Assembly: GCA_026026165.1 (NCBI GenBank)
Contig: JAPEUD010000008.1
Location: 310,001-374,000, forward strand
DNA length: 64,000 bases
DNA from: Sarea resinae
Lineage: Eukaryota
Direction of reading: 5' to 3'
A program made the position numbers and the translations under genes. Every line of letters begins with the position of its first letter. The stretch's first letter is position 1. The notes beneath the pieces are model-generated. The model made no database searches. It saw only the letters and a program-made list of their open reading frames with translations, and had not been told where the DNA came from. Shown piece by piece: positions 835-18,320 of this stretch.

Positions 835-2228
835 TCAATCCGAAAGTGCAATAACGCTAATCGAATCCCAGATCCTCCGCTTTCTACGCCTGCGATCTCT
901 TGTTCTTGAGTCTGTGTCACCAAACATCTTCGGAGCGCCGTCGACAGCATCCCAAGCGGAGTCGGGAATACCATCAGATACATCCTCTGGAGGACTGTCC
1001 TTCGCGGGAATTGCAGGTGCGACTGGCGCTTGTGAGGATGGCGGCGGAGCGGAACGGTGCCGTTTGGGTTTGACAAGGAGTAATATAAATAAGCCCACGA
1101 CGATGAGAAGAAGCAAGAGTATAGCTTTTCGTTTGGTGGTCTTGCGTTGGTATCCAGTGGCCTGTTGTGTATTTATCAGCTCGAAAATGTCCGATGTGGA
1201 GGGAAATACGATTACGTACCACTGTCAACTCCGTGTCGGCCGCTTTGACATCGACGGCCATCCTCTCGACATTATAATCTATCCGATCCAACATAGTCCC
1301 TTGGTCTATCACCATTGTATGAAGCTCCTTGAAGATGTCCGCAAGCTCTATTATTCCCTTTGCAATATCCGTAATCTCCCGTTCTCGTTGTATGATAGCC
1401 GCGTCATTACTGGCGAGCCGTGTTTGAGACGTTTGCTGCAGCGTTGATTGAGAGAAAGACTTGTCCGCATCCGACTCCATGAGAGAAGGGTCCGTGTATG
1501 GGTTCTGGCTCGGTGTGCCCGATCGCTCTAATGGAGAAGCCATGCCATCGAGTCCCCGTAATTCTAAGTCAAGTCAGTCAGCAGACTCGCCATTGAATGT
1601 GAGAAGACTCACTCTTCAAGTAAGCGCTCTGCTTTTTCCTGAAGCCGCCACTAGCCTCCTGCACCCGCGAAGCCAGCGAAATCTGTATGTTCTTCGCCAT
1701 GGTCTCTTCGCCGTTACTGACACTTCCGGTCTGCTTGGACTCCCTGACCAGCTTGTCGATTTTCTGTATTGCTCTCTGGCAGGCATGAAAACCCCGCGTG
1801 ATCTCCTGGGTCAGATCCTCGATCTCATTCTCCTCTCGCCTCCTCACCTCCTCGTCGTCAAAGCCTGGCAAAACGTGCTTCTGATGGAGCTTGTCGAGCT
1901 TGGCGGACCTCTTGGAAATGTCCACGAGCAAATCCGTGACTTCGTCCTGGATCTCGGTCCACCGTGGAGGCAACAGGTCCATCTCAATGACCGCGTCGCC
2001 GTCGTCCTCGAATGCGCCGGCGGACATGAGCCCGCGGCGTTCCTCGGACGCAGAAACATTGTCGGAGAAGCCATTAGACGATGGGCCTACATAGCGAGGC
2101 TTTTTCGACGGGTGATGAGAATAGGATTGACGATAGGAGATGTAGCTGGAGTATCGATCCCGTCAGCTGCGACGAACATGTCAAGAGAGCTGTTCCTACA
2201 CCTACAGATTGGTCCGGTCCCGCCACAT
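835..2228 (-). CDS. TLG2: Golgi/endosomal Qa-SNARE, syntaxin-16/Tlg2 family (4 exons)
   Basis: Spliced N-peptide MWRDRTNL|YISYRQSY (intron 2205-2146), Habc region (LLPPRW...HVLPGFDD), SNARE motif (REREITDIAKGIIELADIFKELHTMVIDQGTMLDRIDYNVE), C-terminal TM LLLIVVGLFILLLV; three GT-AG introns with CTGAY branch sites. Confidence 0.95.
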
Positions 2229-3385
2229 GGCGCCGCTCGAGGAACGAGCAACCACTCAATAGGGACCAGAGACCAAGGGTGACGACTCCACGCGACTGCA
2301 GAGATGGATCATTTGCGGGCAGCAATGGCTGTGTCTCGTGAAGGACGGTGCAGCGGTGGATCGGGTTGAGGATTGGTGCTGAGTGGTGCAGTGATTTGAT
2401 ATGATGAGCTTGTCGACTATCACAATAATCAATGAAGGCATGTGTACTGTAGTACATTGCCTACTGTAGTTCCGATACTTGGCACTTCCATTCGTACATA
2501 CTCCGGAGCAACTCCCGTCCGTAGCCCCCGGGATCAACTGCGCGTCCAAAGCTTCCGAATTGGGGCCTTTCGGGACTTGCCATGGACTTGCCATGGAGCC
2601 GTTGGCAACGTACCAGGTACCTGTAGCTGGATTCGTACTGTGGTGGCCTCCAGCTACTGCTTACCACCAGCTCACCAGAGCACCGGCCCAGCAGCCCTAC
2701 CGCGATATCACACTGGCAAGCTGGAGCTGCGGCATCGAATGCCTGAGGTACCTACCTACCCACCCATCTACCTCCAGCTACCTTCCTACGTAGTGCATAG
2801 TGATGCACATTCACGCTCGTCTACTCTATGAGTCTTCTTGGACGAGATACTCTCTCTGACATGCATTCAATGGTGAACGGTAATGATAATAGGAGTCCCT
2901 TAGGTAATCATCACCATGGTCTTCATCATCACGGTCTGTGTGATGCTATTGGGGCAGAGACGAAGTGGGTAATTTCGAATGAACAGGTACTGATCGATAC
3001 TTCGACCGCCACACCCTGCTGGGCGCGAAGCGGGGTACCACCACCGTCCTCTTGTACCGTCGCGCCCACTTTGCGCCCACAGTGACTGACCGCCTCGACT
3101 CCGATTGACTGCCCACGCAATCCAGCCGACAAGGGTTCCTGCCACCAACGCACGCGCGAGAGAGACAGAGAAGAGAGGGAGAGCAGGCCAGCAGCTGAGG
3201 CTCCATTCATTGAAATTGGACGTCTTGCATCACTCCCCTCATTTCCCCCCCCCCCAACGGCCACCTCGCAATTCTTCTTCTCCTTCTCGCTCCCTCTTGC
3301 AATCGCCAGCCTTTCTCTTCCGCAGCCTCTCATCGATATCTGAAGGCTCAACACTCCTGACGCCTCTTCCCCTCCCCGTCTCAAC

Positions 3386-12415: not shown

Positions 12416-14337
12416 TCAAAGTAGACTCGAGCTTGACTCCAGCTGGGTCCCCTCCCCAGCTCCAATAACATCTCCCTCATCCAACCAGCCTTCCCCAATG
12501 GCAAGAGCAATCAGATCGCTCGCGGACTGCATTTCCGTTTGTCTCGGTTCCAGGATCGTTTCCAGACGTTTCAGATGCTCCTTCAATCTCTCTTGGACTG
12601 ACTGGTATAGATCATCAACACTGGTTACCGTTTTCGTGTCCTCTTCTTTCTCTAGGAGCTTATAGAGGATATAATGCAGCCAAAGGAGGTTGGACCTAGG
12701 ATGATAGTCACGCCAGCTCCGTATCGTTGTCTCGGGTAGCTCTTCGTAACCTCCAGCCTCGTTGTATGGATCTTGCCAGAAAAGATCCGCGCGCATGCTA
12801 TAAAGAATAGACCGTCAATTCCTGCGTTGTTGAGAACTTCCCGGGAATATGCAACCAAGAATCCGACTTACTATCTGTAGATGTCGTACTGGTACTCTCC
12901 CTCTCCCTCGTACAGGCCACAGTCCCTTTCCAGGTCCAAATACGCTATCCGCCTTTCTTCCTCTCCATCTGCTCGAACGACGGTATCTTCCATTTCCGCA
13001 CGCGAAAGTGTATAGTCGATAAGCGTCGTCCTAGTCCCCGTGAAGTTATACTTTTTCCCTTCCAGACCGTCGGCCAATGGTCCGGGCATCTCGCTCGAGT
13101 CATCGTTCTGTTTTCTGGATTGTATGCAGATATTGCCAAGATGAAGGTCGCGATGCTATAGAGATAGATTGACGAGAATCAGCATATGAAGCCCTCATCC
13201 AAGACCCAATTGTCATCCACTTACCTCAAATCCCGCCAATTCCTCCCCCTTCGCCAGCGCCATAGCCACGCCCCAAAACACATCCCACTTCCAAAACACA
13301 TCTCCGAACGCCAGATTTTCCAAGTCTGTCCCCGCATCCTGCATCTCAATGATCGCCCAAAGCTGATCCTCACCATAATTGAACGCCTTGCTTGGGTCCG
13401 GAAAATGGCTCTTCTTCCGCTCCCTCCGGAATCGCTTCCAAGCATCCACGAATTGCGTGGCCGGCCTGCCTCGTATAACTCTCACTTCTCTGAAATTCGT
13501 AAAGCCGGGTACGGGGCTCATCCGCCGTAGTAGCTCCACCTCTGACACCACATCCGCAACCTCGCTCATAAAAGCAGCGACTTTGTTGTTTTTCTTCTTA
13601 TTCTTGGAGGATTGTGGAACCCCATCTTCGGGCGGTTTCAGCGCGATGATTTTTAGCACCGACTCGTCTGAGACATCCCAACCGCTCTTCGGGTCTGAGA
13701 ATTTGAGCCTGTAGACCTCGCCATAAGAGGCTTCCGCTATTTTGTCCACTGTGAAGTTTTGTGCGATTTCGTCAGCCCAGACTTGGAATTCCAGGGGCCC
13801 GGTGGAGTCGGCGGGATCTGAAGACAGATCGAGGAGAGGCTGCGTGTGTGCAGTGAGAGCGTCCAAGGTCAGGAGCGGAGGTTCTTCACGTTTTGTTCTG
13901 CGGGCCCGTCGTTCTCGCCGTACAGGAGACTGGCAGACGGCAGCTACTCCTAGGCCATCTTCTTGTCGTGGAGCTTGCTCTTCTATGGTTTTCTTCTTGT
14001 TGTGCTTTTTGGTTGGTGGTATCTGTTCATTGTGATTTTTCGGCCCGAGAACTCCCTTCCTCGGATCTTCCTGCTTGGTTGCATCCTCTTTATTGTCGCT
14101 CACCGGCGGTGTCTCTTTAGTGTCTTCGTGTCCTAGATCTAGATTCTCCAGGTTTTGTACGAGGGCATCCTCATCGTTGTCCCTCCGAGGCTTGCCTTGA
14201 CTCGATCCTAAGGCCTTAACCTTGACCTCGACATGTTTCGGAGCTGGCTTAGTTGGCGATGACAGATTTGCAAAGGTTGGTGATACGTAAGCTGCTGCCG
14301 TTGATCGCTTTCCATAGACCTTTGCATTTCGAGGCAT
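12416..14337 (-). CDS. Haspin-family protein kinase (3 exons)
   Basis: Disordered N-terminus; KIAEASYGEVY, VLKIIAL, FE|HRDLHLGN catalytic loop, TLIDYTLSRA (haspin DYT), YQYDIYRYMR, SNLLWLHY. Confidence 0.95.
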
Positions 14338-14808
14338 GGTGGGAATTGAGATGTGTAATTCGGATGGCGGCGAGCGGATGCCTGGGTGTCAATAAAGCAA
14401 GAACCAGTTTCTCGAGGATTTCTTGCCCACAATCTGGCGCGAGGTGGATTTGAGTTAGATTCTGCCTCGTTTAGTAGTATGGAAGGTAACGGCATGAGTC
14501 TGACGTACGGCGAACAACAGATTGCCGAAAACGATACTCGGTTGCCTGGGAGACCGGCCATTTCTGAATAGCTTCAGATCCGCGACTGCCAGAATCGCGC
14601 AACACAGAAGGTTGAGCATTGGTATACTACGGCAGGTATCGAAGTAACAGTCTTTAGATCATCAGCGTAGTTCCCCGAGGATATTTCCTTACGATCAGCT
14701 AAACTTCACGTCAATAAATGTCACGCCGTTCAAGGATAACATCATAAACTCCGTCCAGAAAAAAAGCTGGTAAAAACTATGAACAAAAAAACCCTCAAAG
14801 ATTTTATC

Positions 14809-15078
14809 AAAAAGCTCCGACTACTCTTTTGAAGAGTCGTACGAAAACCCCAATGGTGGGATTTATCTCATTAGATTTCTCAGCAGCGAGATCTCTAGTA
14901 GCGAAAGGCTTCCCATCATAAATCGGGAATTATTGGTTGGCGGAAAGGAATTATTCCTCCTGCTGGGTTCGAACACGAGCGAACGCAGTCCTCGACCGAA
15001 GTTTGATGGAGGAGAACCGCTGTCAAGCAGGCAGATAGCACCGAGTAGACCACTACGCCAACTGCACTTTCTGTATGA
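14809..15078 (-). ncRNA. Candidate RNA polymerase III transcript (~260 nt) with a tRNA-like 5' promoter region; identity unknown
   Basis: On - strand: TATATAA 15105-15099; A box TGGCGTAGTGG 15060-15050; B box GTTCGAACCC 14974-14965; T5 14813-14809 followed by T7, T5, T7; several hairpins; acceptor stem does not pair, so not a functional tRNA. Confidence 0.65.
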
Positions 15079-15538
15079 ATGAACAGTGCTATCCTAAGTT
15101 ATATAGGTTGAGCTGAGTATTCACTGTGGTCGAACTTACTACCGCCTGGAACCTCTCACAAGCATTCATAGACTACCATACGGCTCTGGGTGATTATTTG
15201 CCAAAGTCGACCATATTATAGATCGCTCAACAGTGTTTTACTTCTTTTACTTTGATTAAGTCTGTCAAAGCGATGGGCTCAGGCGAGGAAATCTTATGGA
15301 CGCAATACGATGGGCCGCACTATGGAATGACTCGCAAGGCATTGTCGAGTCAAGGCAGCTGGGGTGGGCTTGGACAGACGATTGCGCTCAGAGCAGACGA
15401 AAGAGAACGATTTACGAGTGGAGTATATTGTACAAATGGTCAATCTATGACTAGTCTCTATGCCTGGGCCGTATCCTATGCTTTGCAGTACATTACAGTT
15501 GAAACGCGTAGAAAATGAAAATAAAAGTGTTCAAGGTT

Positions 15539-18320
15539 TTATGGCGGAGAGCTCTTCTTCTCCTCTTCAAAGATTTCCTTGGCTTTCTCCTCCTTGGACT
15601 TGTCTTCCATGTACCTCTTGGCGATCACCTCATCGGCCTCTTTCATCTCTTCCACATCGTCGCCACCCTCCTCCTCTTCTTCTAGATTTTGTTCCATTTC
15701 TTCCCGTTCGGTTGGCGGTCCCCTCACTTCTGCGCTACGCGACGGATGATCAGGGACGTCACTGCCGCTCATCTGCCATTCCATCAACTTGCTAAATGCA
15801 CCATCGGGGTTCGATGACAATTCTCTGTATGTTCCCTGTTCAGCCACGCGGCCATCAGTAGAGAGTACGATGACTCGATCAGAGCGCTTGATGGTGGAGA
15901 GTCGATGAGCGATCGAGATAGTCGTGTTATGCCCTTTGAGAAGTTCAGCAAGAGCCGCGTTGACGAGCGTCTCGGACTCGGCGTCGAGGGCAGAAGTCGC
16001 TAGATAGAGAAAGGAGCGTTAGCCGGTTGGTTGAAGAACGCTAAGTACTGAGATATAGTAACGTGAGAGGGAGCTTACCTTCATCAAGGATGAGGATGTC
16101 AGGATCCTTGACAAGTGCACGCGCAATAGCTATTCGCTGCTTCTGGCCACCAGAGAGCTGAGTCCCACGCGGCCCTACGTGAGTGTCGAGGCCATCAGGC
16201 TGTAATCAGACTGGTCAGCAATTTGATGGAGAAAGTATTGGAGAGAGAGACTTACGAAGTCACTGATGAACTGGCAATTTGCCTTGCGAGCTGCCAATAT
16301 AATCTCAGAGCGTGTAGCCAAAGGCTTTGCGTAGGCAATGTTCTCGGCAATGGTGCCCGAAAATAGTACAGGCTCTTGAGCAACGAGACCAATCTTTCTG
16401 CGCAGTGACTTGACATTCATCTTGGCAATATCTTGACCATTAATCTTGATGGAGCCTGCGCTCGGATTGTAGAATCGAAGCATTAGTTGCGCGATGGTCG
16501 ACTTTCCTCCTCCGCTGGGGCCTACGATGGCTACGTTGGTACCTTGCGGTATCTCGAATGTAAGGTTTTCGAAGATCGTAACCGCGGGCCGGGTAGGATA
16601 GCTGAACTTCACGTTCTCGAAGGTGATCGGGCCACGGGCTGACTTGACTTGTTGTCCGACTGTCGCTGCAATGGTCGGTTGTCGATCCTGCAGCTCAAAG
16701 AGACGGCTGGCAGCGCCCACACCCTTCATCAACTCGGAATAGAAACTTGACAGTCCGACAAGACTGGATCCGGCATAAGCTGTGTACATCATAAAGGATG
16801 ATAGGTCTCCGATACTGATAGCCCCAGATTTGACCATTGAACCACCCACGTAAAGGAGGGCCAGTATGGTCATGTTCCCCATCAGCCCTGTCTGCATACT
16901 AATTAGCCTCAAGAACGGAGTCTAAAGCTTGACTCTACATACCGAGCTGAAGAAGGTAGCGCTGATCAGAGCTTCTCTTACTCCCAGATTGAAGATCTTT
17001 CGGACTTGAGTGTTGTATCTATGCACTTCCAGCACTTCGCCGGCAAAGGCCTGACTGGTTCGCACATTGCCGAGACGCTCTTCCGCAATTTTGGTCAGAG
17101 TACCAAGATTCTTCTGGATCTTGCGACTTAGGTTCCGAATAGCCCTTCCGTACAAGAACGCACCAATAGCTACCGGTGGGAATAGCAAAGTGAGTACTCC
17201 CGTAAGCTTCAAGCTCACGTATGCCATCATTCCAAACCCAGCTCCTCCACTCACTAGAGCCCGAAGGCCGTCAGAGAGGTTTTGGGTGATACTCTTTCCG
17301 ACGATGATCGTATCGGAACCAAGCCGCGAGATAAGGTCGCCGACCCTGTTGGCGTCGAAGAACTCTGCGTCTTGAACATACGTCTTGCGGAAGAGAGATG
17401 ACCGTAGTCGGGTGACTATTCTTTCGCCCACCAGCCGGAGAATGATGATACGACCATAATTTGCGCCAGCGCCCAGGGTAAGGACCTTTTTCAATTTTAG
17501 CCACTGGGCCAAACCGACTTGTAAGAGACACTCACTCCTGCCAAAGCTATGTAAAATGTTGAAAGATCTAGACCAAAGAGCTGATCGGTGCCCGATTCAG
17601 CCTTTGTTGCGATGTCGATGATCCTTCCAATGGAAAAGCTGCTTCTCTCAGCACTGTTGAAAGACGGCAAGATTGAGAGAACTCACGGTATTGACATGGT
17701 AATCGAAGATGAAATCAATAGAAAAACAAATGCCCCTAGAAGGATCCGAATTAGCAACTCTTCGTGAGCGGCGCCGACGTTCGCCCAGGGCCATGGTGCC
17801 AACCTCCAAGCCATTTTGCCTCTGGCCTCGCAATCTTGAGAAGCCTCCAAATCTCCGATACGCCCGGCTTTGCTGCCTGCTTATCCTTGTGCAGCCTGGC
17901 GCTCAAGTTCACTTGCGCCGCCTGCGTTGCTTTCTCGGACCGAGCGAACCCCCGCTCTCCATGATCCGCTGGCTGCGTCACCTCCGTCTTTTCTTTTCCG
18001 GGTCTCGATTGCGCTTCTCGTAAAGCTCGGGTGGTGGTGATGATACGGCGCTGCACCCGGGCAGCTGACCTGTGATATGAGGGCCATTGTGGTTGTGAGA
18101 GGCGGATCGGAGTATGATTCAAGGTTTGCCGAGAGAAGATGCTGGACGGCGATGGGTTCGAAGAGGTGGACAGGAATTGCTTGGCAGCAGCACTAGATGC
18201 TAGAATTGATCGTACCGAATGCGGTCTCGAGGGAAGAGTGCGTGAAGTGGAGAGGAGAAAGGCCGAGCCAGCCATGGAAGCTATGCCGGCTTGCTGACCG
18301 AGCAGCGTTGAGGCGCGCAT
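15539..18320 (-). CDS. MDL1: Mitochondrial ABCB half-transporter, Mdl1/ABCB10 type (7 exons)
   Basis: Arg/Ser-rich presequence; [32 protein letters not shown], Walker A GPSGGGKS, signature [38 protein letters not shown]. Confidence 0.93.

Follow-up and report, generated by a model that had tools for sequence, protein, structure and literature searches.

A candidate Pol III unit with a tRNA-type promoter upstream of haspin in Sarea resinae, tentatively assigned to a low-copy SINE-like family

Aspergillus fumigatus harbours tRNA-related SINE families, AfuSINE2 among them, which measure 140-493 bp and several of which are transcribed (PMC5063351, excerpt); for the five AfuSINE elements with an estimate, copy number was put at 1-5 (PMC5063351, excerpt). 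Here we describe an element in a 64,000-nt stretch of the genome of Sarea resinae (hereafter, the window) that recalls AfuSINE2 in several ways. AfuSINE2 is likewise short and non-coding, carries Pol III motifs of the A/B type at its 5′ end in front of a body unrelated to tRNA, and occurs at very low copy number in gene-rich regions, in some cases with transcription (PMC5063351, excerpt). However, AfuSINE2 was found through relaxed tRNAscan and Repbase similarity and has target-site duplications of 4-14 bp (PMC5063351, excerpt), whereas in the Sarea element no tRNA model scores, no duplication is significant, and a T run or T-rich tract forms the 3′ end. By eye, as opposed to by computation, we noticed no similarity to the AfuSINE sequences printed in the excerpted part of that report.

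Other Pol III systems share parts of this design. RPR1, SNR52 and ZOD1 of S. cerevisiae place A and B boxes at the 5′ end of a non-tRNA transcript that does not fold as a tRNA (PMC2566860, excerpt), but each is a lone gene from a known family (RNase P RNA, C/D snoRNA), whereas the Sarea element is multi-copy and has no Rfam match. RUF70 of Yarrowia lipolytica is a multi-copy Pol III RNA whose function is not known, with 13 genes (PMC2566860, excerpt); in contrast to the Sarea element, which has A and B boxes of its own and no intact tRNA, it is ~70 nt long and is described in that excerpt as having no internal promoter and being co-transcribed behind tRNA-Trp genes. The 7SL- or tRNA-derived 4.5SH and 4.5SI RNA genes combine boxes A and B with a needed TATA-like box at -31/-24 (PMC10137851, excerpt). 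This is the promoter layout of the Sarea element, but these genes are mammalian and unrelated in sequence, and their transcription is experimental where that of the Sarea element is inferred. Finally, milRNA loci of Neurospora crassa are non-tRNA Pol III units with TATA-like motifs, some putative A/B boxes and a T cluster after the RNA (PMC3547838, excerpt); they differ in giving rise to Dicer-related small RNAs from hairpins, and a long hairpin is not predicted in the Sarea element.

The element occupies the central part of a 1.2-kb spacer that runs from the stop codon of an ABC-transporter gene (15539) to the ATG of haspin (14337), with both genes on the minus strand, ~430 nt past the former and ~420 nt before the latter. 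The haspin ATG was set by back-mapping a 592-residue Sarea resinae protein that is 100% identical to the haspin-like ORF of the window, whose next best relative, from Xylona heveae, is 42% identical; the upstream gene encodes ABC_membrane and ABC_tran domains, and its last open frame ends at 15539. The original prediction had placed the element between haspin and a gene it called MDL1; the mapping of ORFs and domains supports a position between haspin and an ABC-transporter gene. G+C content is 52.8% in the window overall, 45.7% in the spacer and 47.8% in the element. Searches of the whole 64-kb window found no tRNA gene (ARAGORN, introns allowed), no Rfam match at gathering score and no second copy of the element.

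Every motif of the original prediction was recovered where it had been placed, including the T5/T7/T5/T7 succession:

15105-15099, minus strand: TATATAA, a putative TFIIIB/TBP site ~28 nt upstream of the point where similarity among family copies, and presumably the transcript, starts
15067-15061, minus strand: GTGCAGT
15060-15050, minus strand: A box TGGCGTAGTGG, matching TRGCNNAGTGG at all specified positions
14974-14965, minus strand: B box GTTCGAACCC, matching GGTTCGANNCC save for the first G
14813-14809, minus strand: first T5 run, presumably the main terminator; family similarity ends here on the 3′ side
14791-14785 (T7), 14776-14772 (T5) and 14765-14759 (T7), minus strand: further T runs, either back-up terminators or a decayed T-rich tail
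14809-15077, minus strand: predicted Pol III transcript of ~260-270 nt, its limits inferred from where similarity among the copies starts and ends

The layout of a type-2 Pol III gene is complete: the A and B boxes lie 86 nt apart, start to start, a workable spacing; no run of five or more T interrupts the sequence between the A box and 14813, with no T5 for ~150 nt; and oligo-T follows downstream, the 55-nt tract behind the body (14813-14759) being 58% T. Under a strict pair rule (TRGCNNAGTGG, then GTTCRANNC 25-120 nt later), the window holds one A+B pair against a mean expectation of 0.015 per 64 kb in 200 second-order Markov simulations. The same rule applied to 65 loci from other fungi, 432,964 bases in all, returned two pairs, both of them real tRNA-Ser genes. 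TATAWAW occurs at 19 sites in the window, counting both strands, which gives a 0.24% chance for a 16-nt slot, and the four runs of T5 or longer within 60 nt form the sole such cluster in the window on either strand. The prediction of a non-tRNA unit with a full, TATA-assisted type-2 motif set is borne out by this low expectation and by the rarity of both the TATA and the T cluster: as read from the sequence, the set exceeds chance by far.

The element is not a tRNA gene. The original prediction had noted that GTGCAGT has no 3′ partner and that the T stem is broken, and both statements hold. ARAGORN reported no tRNA by default, with introns or with -ps, giving implausible models only at thresholds of 80%/60%; as a positive control, the same intron-allowing run (-i) detected true tRNA-Ser genes in two of the other fungal loci (L003 and L045). 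The Rfam search of 381 bases (14740-15120) gave no tRNA match even at E ≤ 10. Because neither program scores a tRNA head, calling the element tRNA-derived means relying on the two boxes alone. Origin from tRNA-Ser was also considered: when the element is aligned with the two tRNA-Ser genes the A boxes fall out of register, and only GTGTTCGAA and ATCAAA are common.

Nor does the element correspond to a catalogued RNA, as had been predicted: it matches none of the 4227 families of Rfam 15 (covariance models). On 3 kb (13500-16500) there were no matches at E ≤ 10, and on the 381 bases there were two at chance level only (CRISPR-DR26, E=2; CyVA-1, E=6.1), with none at E ≤ 10 to the snoRNA, RNase P/MRP, SRP, U6 or 5S models. 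The element contains AGCAGG and a CUACUCGG-like string, which we take to be features of 7SL RNA; yet a match to the SRP model is absent, and SRP RNA was rejected. A complete, non-tRNA, uncatalogued unit of apparent Pol III type is therefore supported.

The original prediction had taken this unit for a single resident gene, and here the copy search points elsewhere. Contigs of one DNA run (X1) that contains this stretch and may be its source were compared with 14200-15700 at 80% likeness. The output gives the number of differences within each matching block, without their exact positions, and ~30 letters beyond each block. Besides the window's own contig (depth 350), four contigs (depths 319, 376, 362 and 355) match parts of the element of 38-47 bases at 85-92% identity, and nothing else in the 1.5 kb. 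The matches, and the blocks they define, are as follows:

15023-15061: A-box block, 39 nt, 5 differences (record 5)
14968-15005: B-box block, 38 nt, 3 differences (record 4)
14808-14846: 39 nt, 4 differences (record 2)
14830-14876: 47 nt, 4 differences and 3 single-base insertions (record 3)
14808-14876, minus strand: conserved 3′ block with the hairpin ACTCTT-CAA-AAGAGT and the first terminator (records 2 and 3)
14968-15005, minus strand: conserved B-box block, containing the B box (record 4)
15006-15027, minus strand: variable segment between the A and B blocks, forming the 5′ strand of the GCGGTTCTC helix

Read by eye, the 30-letter loose ends show that likeness continues past the aligned pieces. 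ACAGAAAG (15074-15067) recurs in the other copy upstream of the A block, followed by a different 7-mer, and upstream of ACAGAAAG likeness is lost (7 of 16 positions alike, by eye). Past the B block, record 4 reads GTTCGAA-T-CCCAGCAGGAGGA..TTC..TTTCC; its B box is intact, one base longer than that of the window and nearer the consensus. On the other side of the B block (from 15005), record 4 has the outer GCCTGCTT in common with the window and then ~22 unrelated letters, so far as the eye can tell, and its variable segment appears ~3 nt longer than the window's. The loose end of record 3 at the 3′ side runs on through ...GAGCTTTTTG (by eye). Record 2 is unlike the window directly after TTTTTG (T5 plus G, 14813-14808).

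Records 2 and 3 represent two loci, because their downstream letters differ, and record 4 is most likely a third, because it covers the full length of its copy (match at 716-753 of 1226) but shows an alignment at the B block alone. Record 5 could come from a fourth locus or be the 5′ portion of another record's copy. On these sequence matches there are at least two, and probably three or four, further loci with unrelated flanks, and a family of about three to five diverged, dispersed copies in this Sarea resinae genome. Since similarity is lost upstream of ACAGAAAG and after TTTTTG, the repeated unit is about the size of the transcript and its flanks are unrelated: it runs from ~15077 to the first T5 run, which is the stretch that Pol III would transcribe from such a promoter, and similarity in the other copies is confined to this presumed transcript. 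As far as visible, TATATAA lies outside the portion common to the other copies. Copy number was one of the checks that the original prediction had set against itself, and its outcome here is positive. The claim of a unique resident gene, as judged from these diverged blocks on other contigs, is accordingly weakened, and because there are several diverged copies, a small mobile-element-like family is more likely than a unique new RNA gene. A repeated unit in unrelated flanks is characteristic either of a family of SINE-like elements or of an RNA gene whose copies are dispersed.

Other identities for the unit were examined. A stop-free antisense frame of 99 codons (14783-15082, plus strand) spans almost the whole element; a coding reading was rejected, with no Pfam match in any of the four frames tried and no protein relatives at E ≤ 1, and coding is further unlikely because single-base indels separate the copies. 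A MITE or an LTR was rejected as well, the ends of the unit having merely weak inverted likeness, and TG...CA ends being absent by eye.

The copies also bear on whether a known RNA was missed by the models, namely a C/D box snoRNA in the 3′ half behind an A/B-box leader of the SNR52 or RPR1 type, which we consider very improbable. A C-like AUGAUGG (~14906-14900) and a D position (14818-14815) lie ~92 nt apart, and the copy of record 3, whose 3′ end reads ...AGAATAGTCTGAGCTTTTTG by eye, has a true CUGA at the D position, then GC and T5. The upstream sequences of S. cerevisiae snR52, RPR1 and Zod1, moreover, carry regular A and B elements (PMC2566860, excerpt). Yet no snoRNA model matched the 381 bases at E ≤ 10, the D position of the window copy reads CGGA instead of CUGA, and the site of the D guide is taken up by a hairpin. 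By eye, the boxes lack an adjoining terminal stem, and the one internal CUGA lies in a stretch absent from the record 3 copy. In addition, snR52 is single-copy in yeast, against several copies here.

We tentatively prefer to see the element as one copy of a low-copy, SINE-like family of the tRNA-promoter type, the window copy being able to be transcribed; on the available sequence this is plausible, at a little under even confidence. It is ranked first because similar low-copy SINEs exist in Aspergillus fumigatus and because a SINE tail can lack A-richness. Four further contigs of like depth carry dispersed copies whose flanks are unrelated, and the single-base indels, together with a fold that 13 of 200 shuffles match, suit decaying copies over a tightly constrained RNA. 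Under such a scheme, TFIIIC bound to the two boxes (A, 15060-15050; B, 14974-14965) would place TFIIIB on TATATAA; Pol III would start near 15077-15070 and stop at the T5 run at 14813-14809, with three T runs behind it, yielding a non-tRNA RNA of ~260 nt. The other copies would have originated when such a transcript was reverse-transcribed in trans, and the window copy may be a source copy, given its favourable TATA and terminators.

Several observations count against a SINE-like family. An A-rich tail is absent, which the original prediction had used as an argument against a SINE; this is indecisive, because poly(T) and low-complexity tails also occur in SINEs (PMC8825457, excerpt) and the element ends in sequence that is 58% T. 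The 3′ tails give a mixed picture, the window copy having its 55-nt T-rich tract and the record 2 copy only T5 before unrelated sequence. No significant target-site duplication was seen around the window copy. The longest flanking direct repeat is 7 nt, a length reached in 328 of 2000 flank shuffles:

15085-15079, minus strand: TGTTCAT, upstream copy, a candidate target-site duplication (not significant)
14785-14779, minus strand: TGTTCAT, downstream copy, directly after the T7 run

Furthermore, a TATA at the right distance and stacked terminators, both outside the repeated unit, would be luck for a random insertion, and blocks of 85-92% identity stand beside an almost unrelated stretch of 22 nt, a pattern that also fits a functional RNA with variable regions.

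These last points speak for a different origin, a lineage-specific cellular Pol III ncRNA gene with a structured product of ~260 nt, of which the other loci would be paralogues or pseudogenes; we regard this as possible, although on the unlikely side. The genes of 7SL, Y and U6 RNAs are accompanied by dispersed copies. TATATAA (~-28) and the unique stack of four T runs are where a working Pol III gene needs them, an argument softened because a small family may include its own source gene. Conservation is strongly uneven, with A-box, B-box and 3′ hairpin-terminator blocks and a free segment between. The hairpin AGGAA-TAA-TTCCT reads AGGAG..TTCTT in record 4 (by eye), where both changes keep G-U pairing; however, the two are transitions, expected under neutral decay too. 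Rodent 4.5SH and 4.5SI genes provide a precedent with a similar layout (PMC10137851, excerpt), and RUF70 is a fungal precedent for one Pol III RNA, of no known role, with several genes (PMC2566860, excerpt). Structure was part of the original prediction, and the helices it listed are indeed present in the MFE folds, but in folding energy they hold no clear advantage over shuffled sequences: for 14809-15066, z = -1.76, and the two halves score -0.65 and -1.35, so that by energy the fold is indistinguishable from shuffles. Three single-base insertions fall in the predicted hairpin of one copy, and relatives outside this genome were not found, in searches that covered almost no suitable DNA. We know of no such ncRNA family in Pezizomycotina. 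That the window copy is itself the working gene of an undescribed, lineage-specific Pol III RNA of ~260 nt in Sareomycetes, with a TATA and A/B-box promoter, stacked terminators, conserved ends and a variable middle, and with paralogues or retro-pseudogenes at the other loci, is on the sequence an unlikely proposition.

The unit might instead be an inert dispersed repeat or relic that Pol III no longer transcribes, such as old retro-copies of a lost tRNA-like gene or a transposon fragment, with the T tract belonging to the haspin promoter; we hold this to be quite improbable. Fungal core promoters can carry pyrimidine tracts at such an upstream position, and ~420 nt before the haspin ATG is a possible place for one. 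Neither the T stem nor the acceptor pairing is intact, and divergence and indels separate the copies. TATA is absent upstream of both real fungal tRNA-Ser genes (0/2), so nothing seen here shows that this group depends on TATA, which may not matter for its Pol III. Against an inert relic, the A box is perfect and the B box near-perfect, the B box is intact in the sole other copy where it can be read, no other promoter of the 64-kb window has a T-run cluster of this kind, and without selection or recent origin it is difficult to get TATA, A box, B box, a T-free body and T runs all in place together.

Comparative searches covered 65 metagenome haspin loci. They contained no relatives of the ABC-transporter exon at E ≤ 1e-5 and none of the element; the loci give no comparative signal because the nearest haspin is only 42% identical. 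ARAGORN at default settings found nothing in the 60 of these 65 loci on which it was run and, with introns allowed on all 65, two intron-containing tRNA-Ser(CGA) genes, at 1284-1375 (plus strand) of L003 and 2197-2301 (minus strand) of L045, a few kb from the haspin homologues; both end in T4/T5 runs. The gene order of the window, with an ABC transporter upstream of haspin, occurs in none of the 65 loci. In nine of them (L044, at 3-1649 on the minus strand, and L005, L003, L002, L045, L006, L016, L015 and L058), a divergent ORF of ~550 codons with a membrane-like N-terminus and a Spermine_synth domain (PF01564, E=6.5e-07) lies upstream of haspin.

A blastn match of 22/23 identity joins 15044-15066 (minus strand) of the window to 1178-1200 (minus strand) of L044 (E=8.9e-4 against 433 kb). 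As a relative of the element it was rejected as chance, since it sits in the 549-codon Spermine_synth ORF, which has no counterpart in the window at E ≤ 10. A 20-base pattern from the B block had one match in prokaryote genomes, which contains no tRNA, reads as coding by eye and is about what we estimate for chance. The other DNA runs of the study (X2 and X3, from other organisms) gave only short matches of <90% in the ABC-transporter coding part. These X2/X3 matches, at 15554-15592 and 15637-15676, fall in the acidic C-terminal coding part and probably reflect low-complexity likeness.

As regards annotation, both Rfam and tRNA finders miss the element, and its nature was narrowed only through further copies in the same genome. 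To our knowledge, few Pol III genes exist beyond those for tRNA and 5S, filamentous and lichen-associated ascomycetes have hardly been explored for them, and there are almost no functional data for Sareomycetes. TFIIIC-bound sites can act as boundaries in yeasts, and the element would mark a likely, predicted TFIIIC-bound site between two tandem Pol II genes. If the window copy were a working RNA gene, it would be a fungal counterpart of those animal small Pol III RNAs that have dispersed copies (7SL/Alu, Y and 4.5S-type). As an unannotated unit complete in promoter and terminators, the element would mean, for Sareomycetes, either a SINE-like family or a small RNA that is new.
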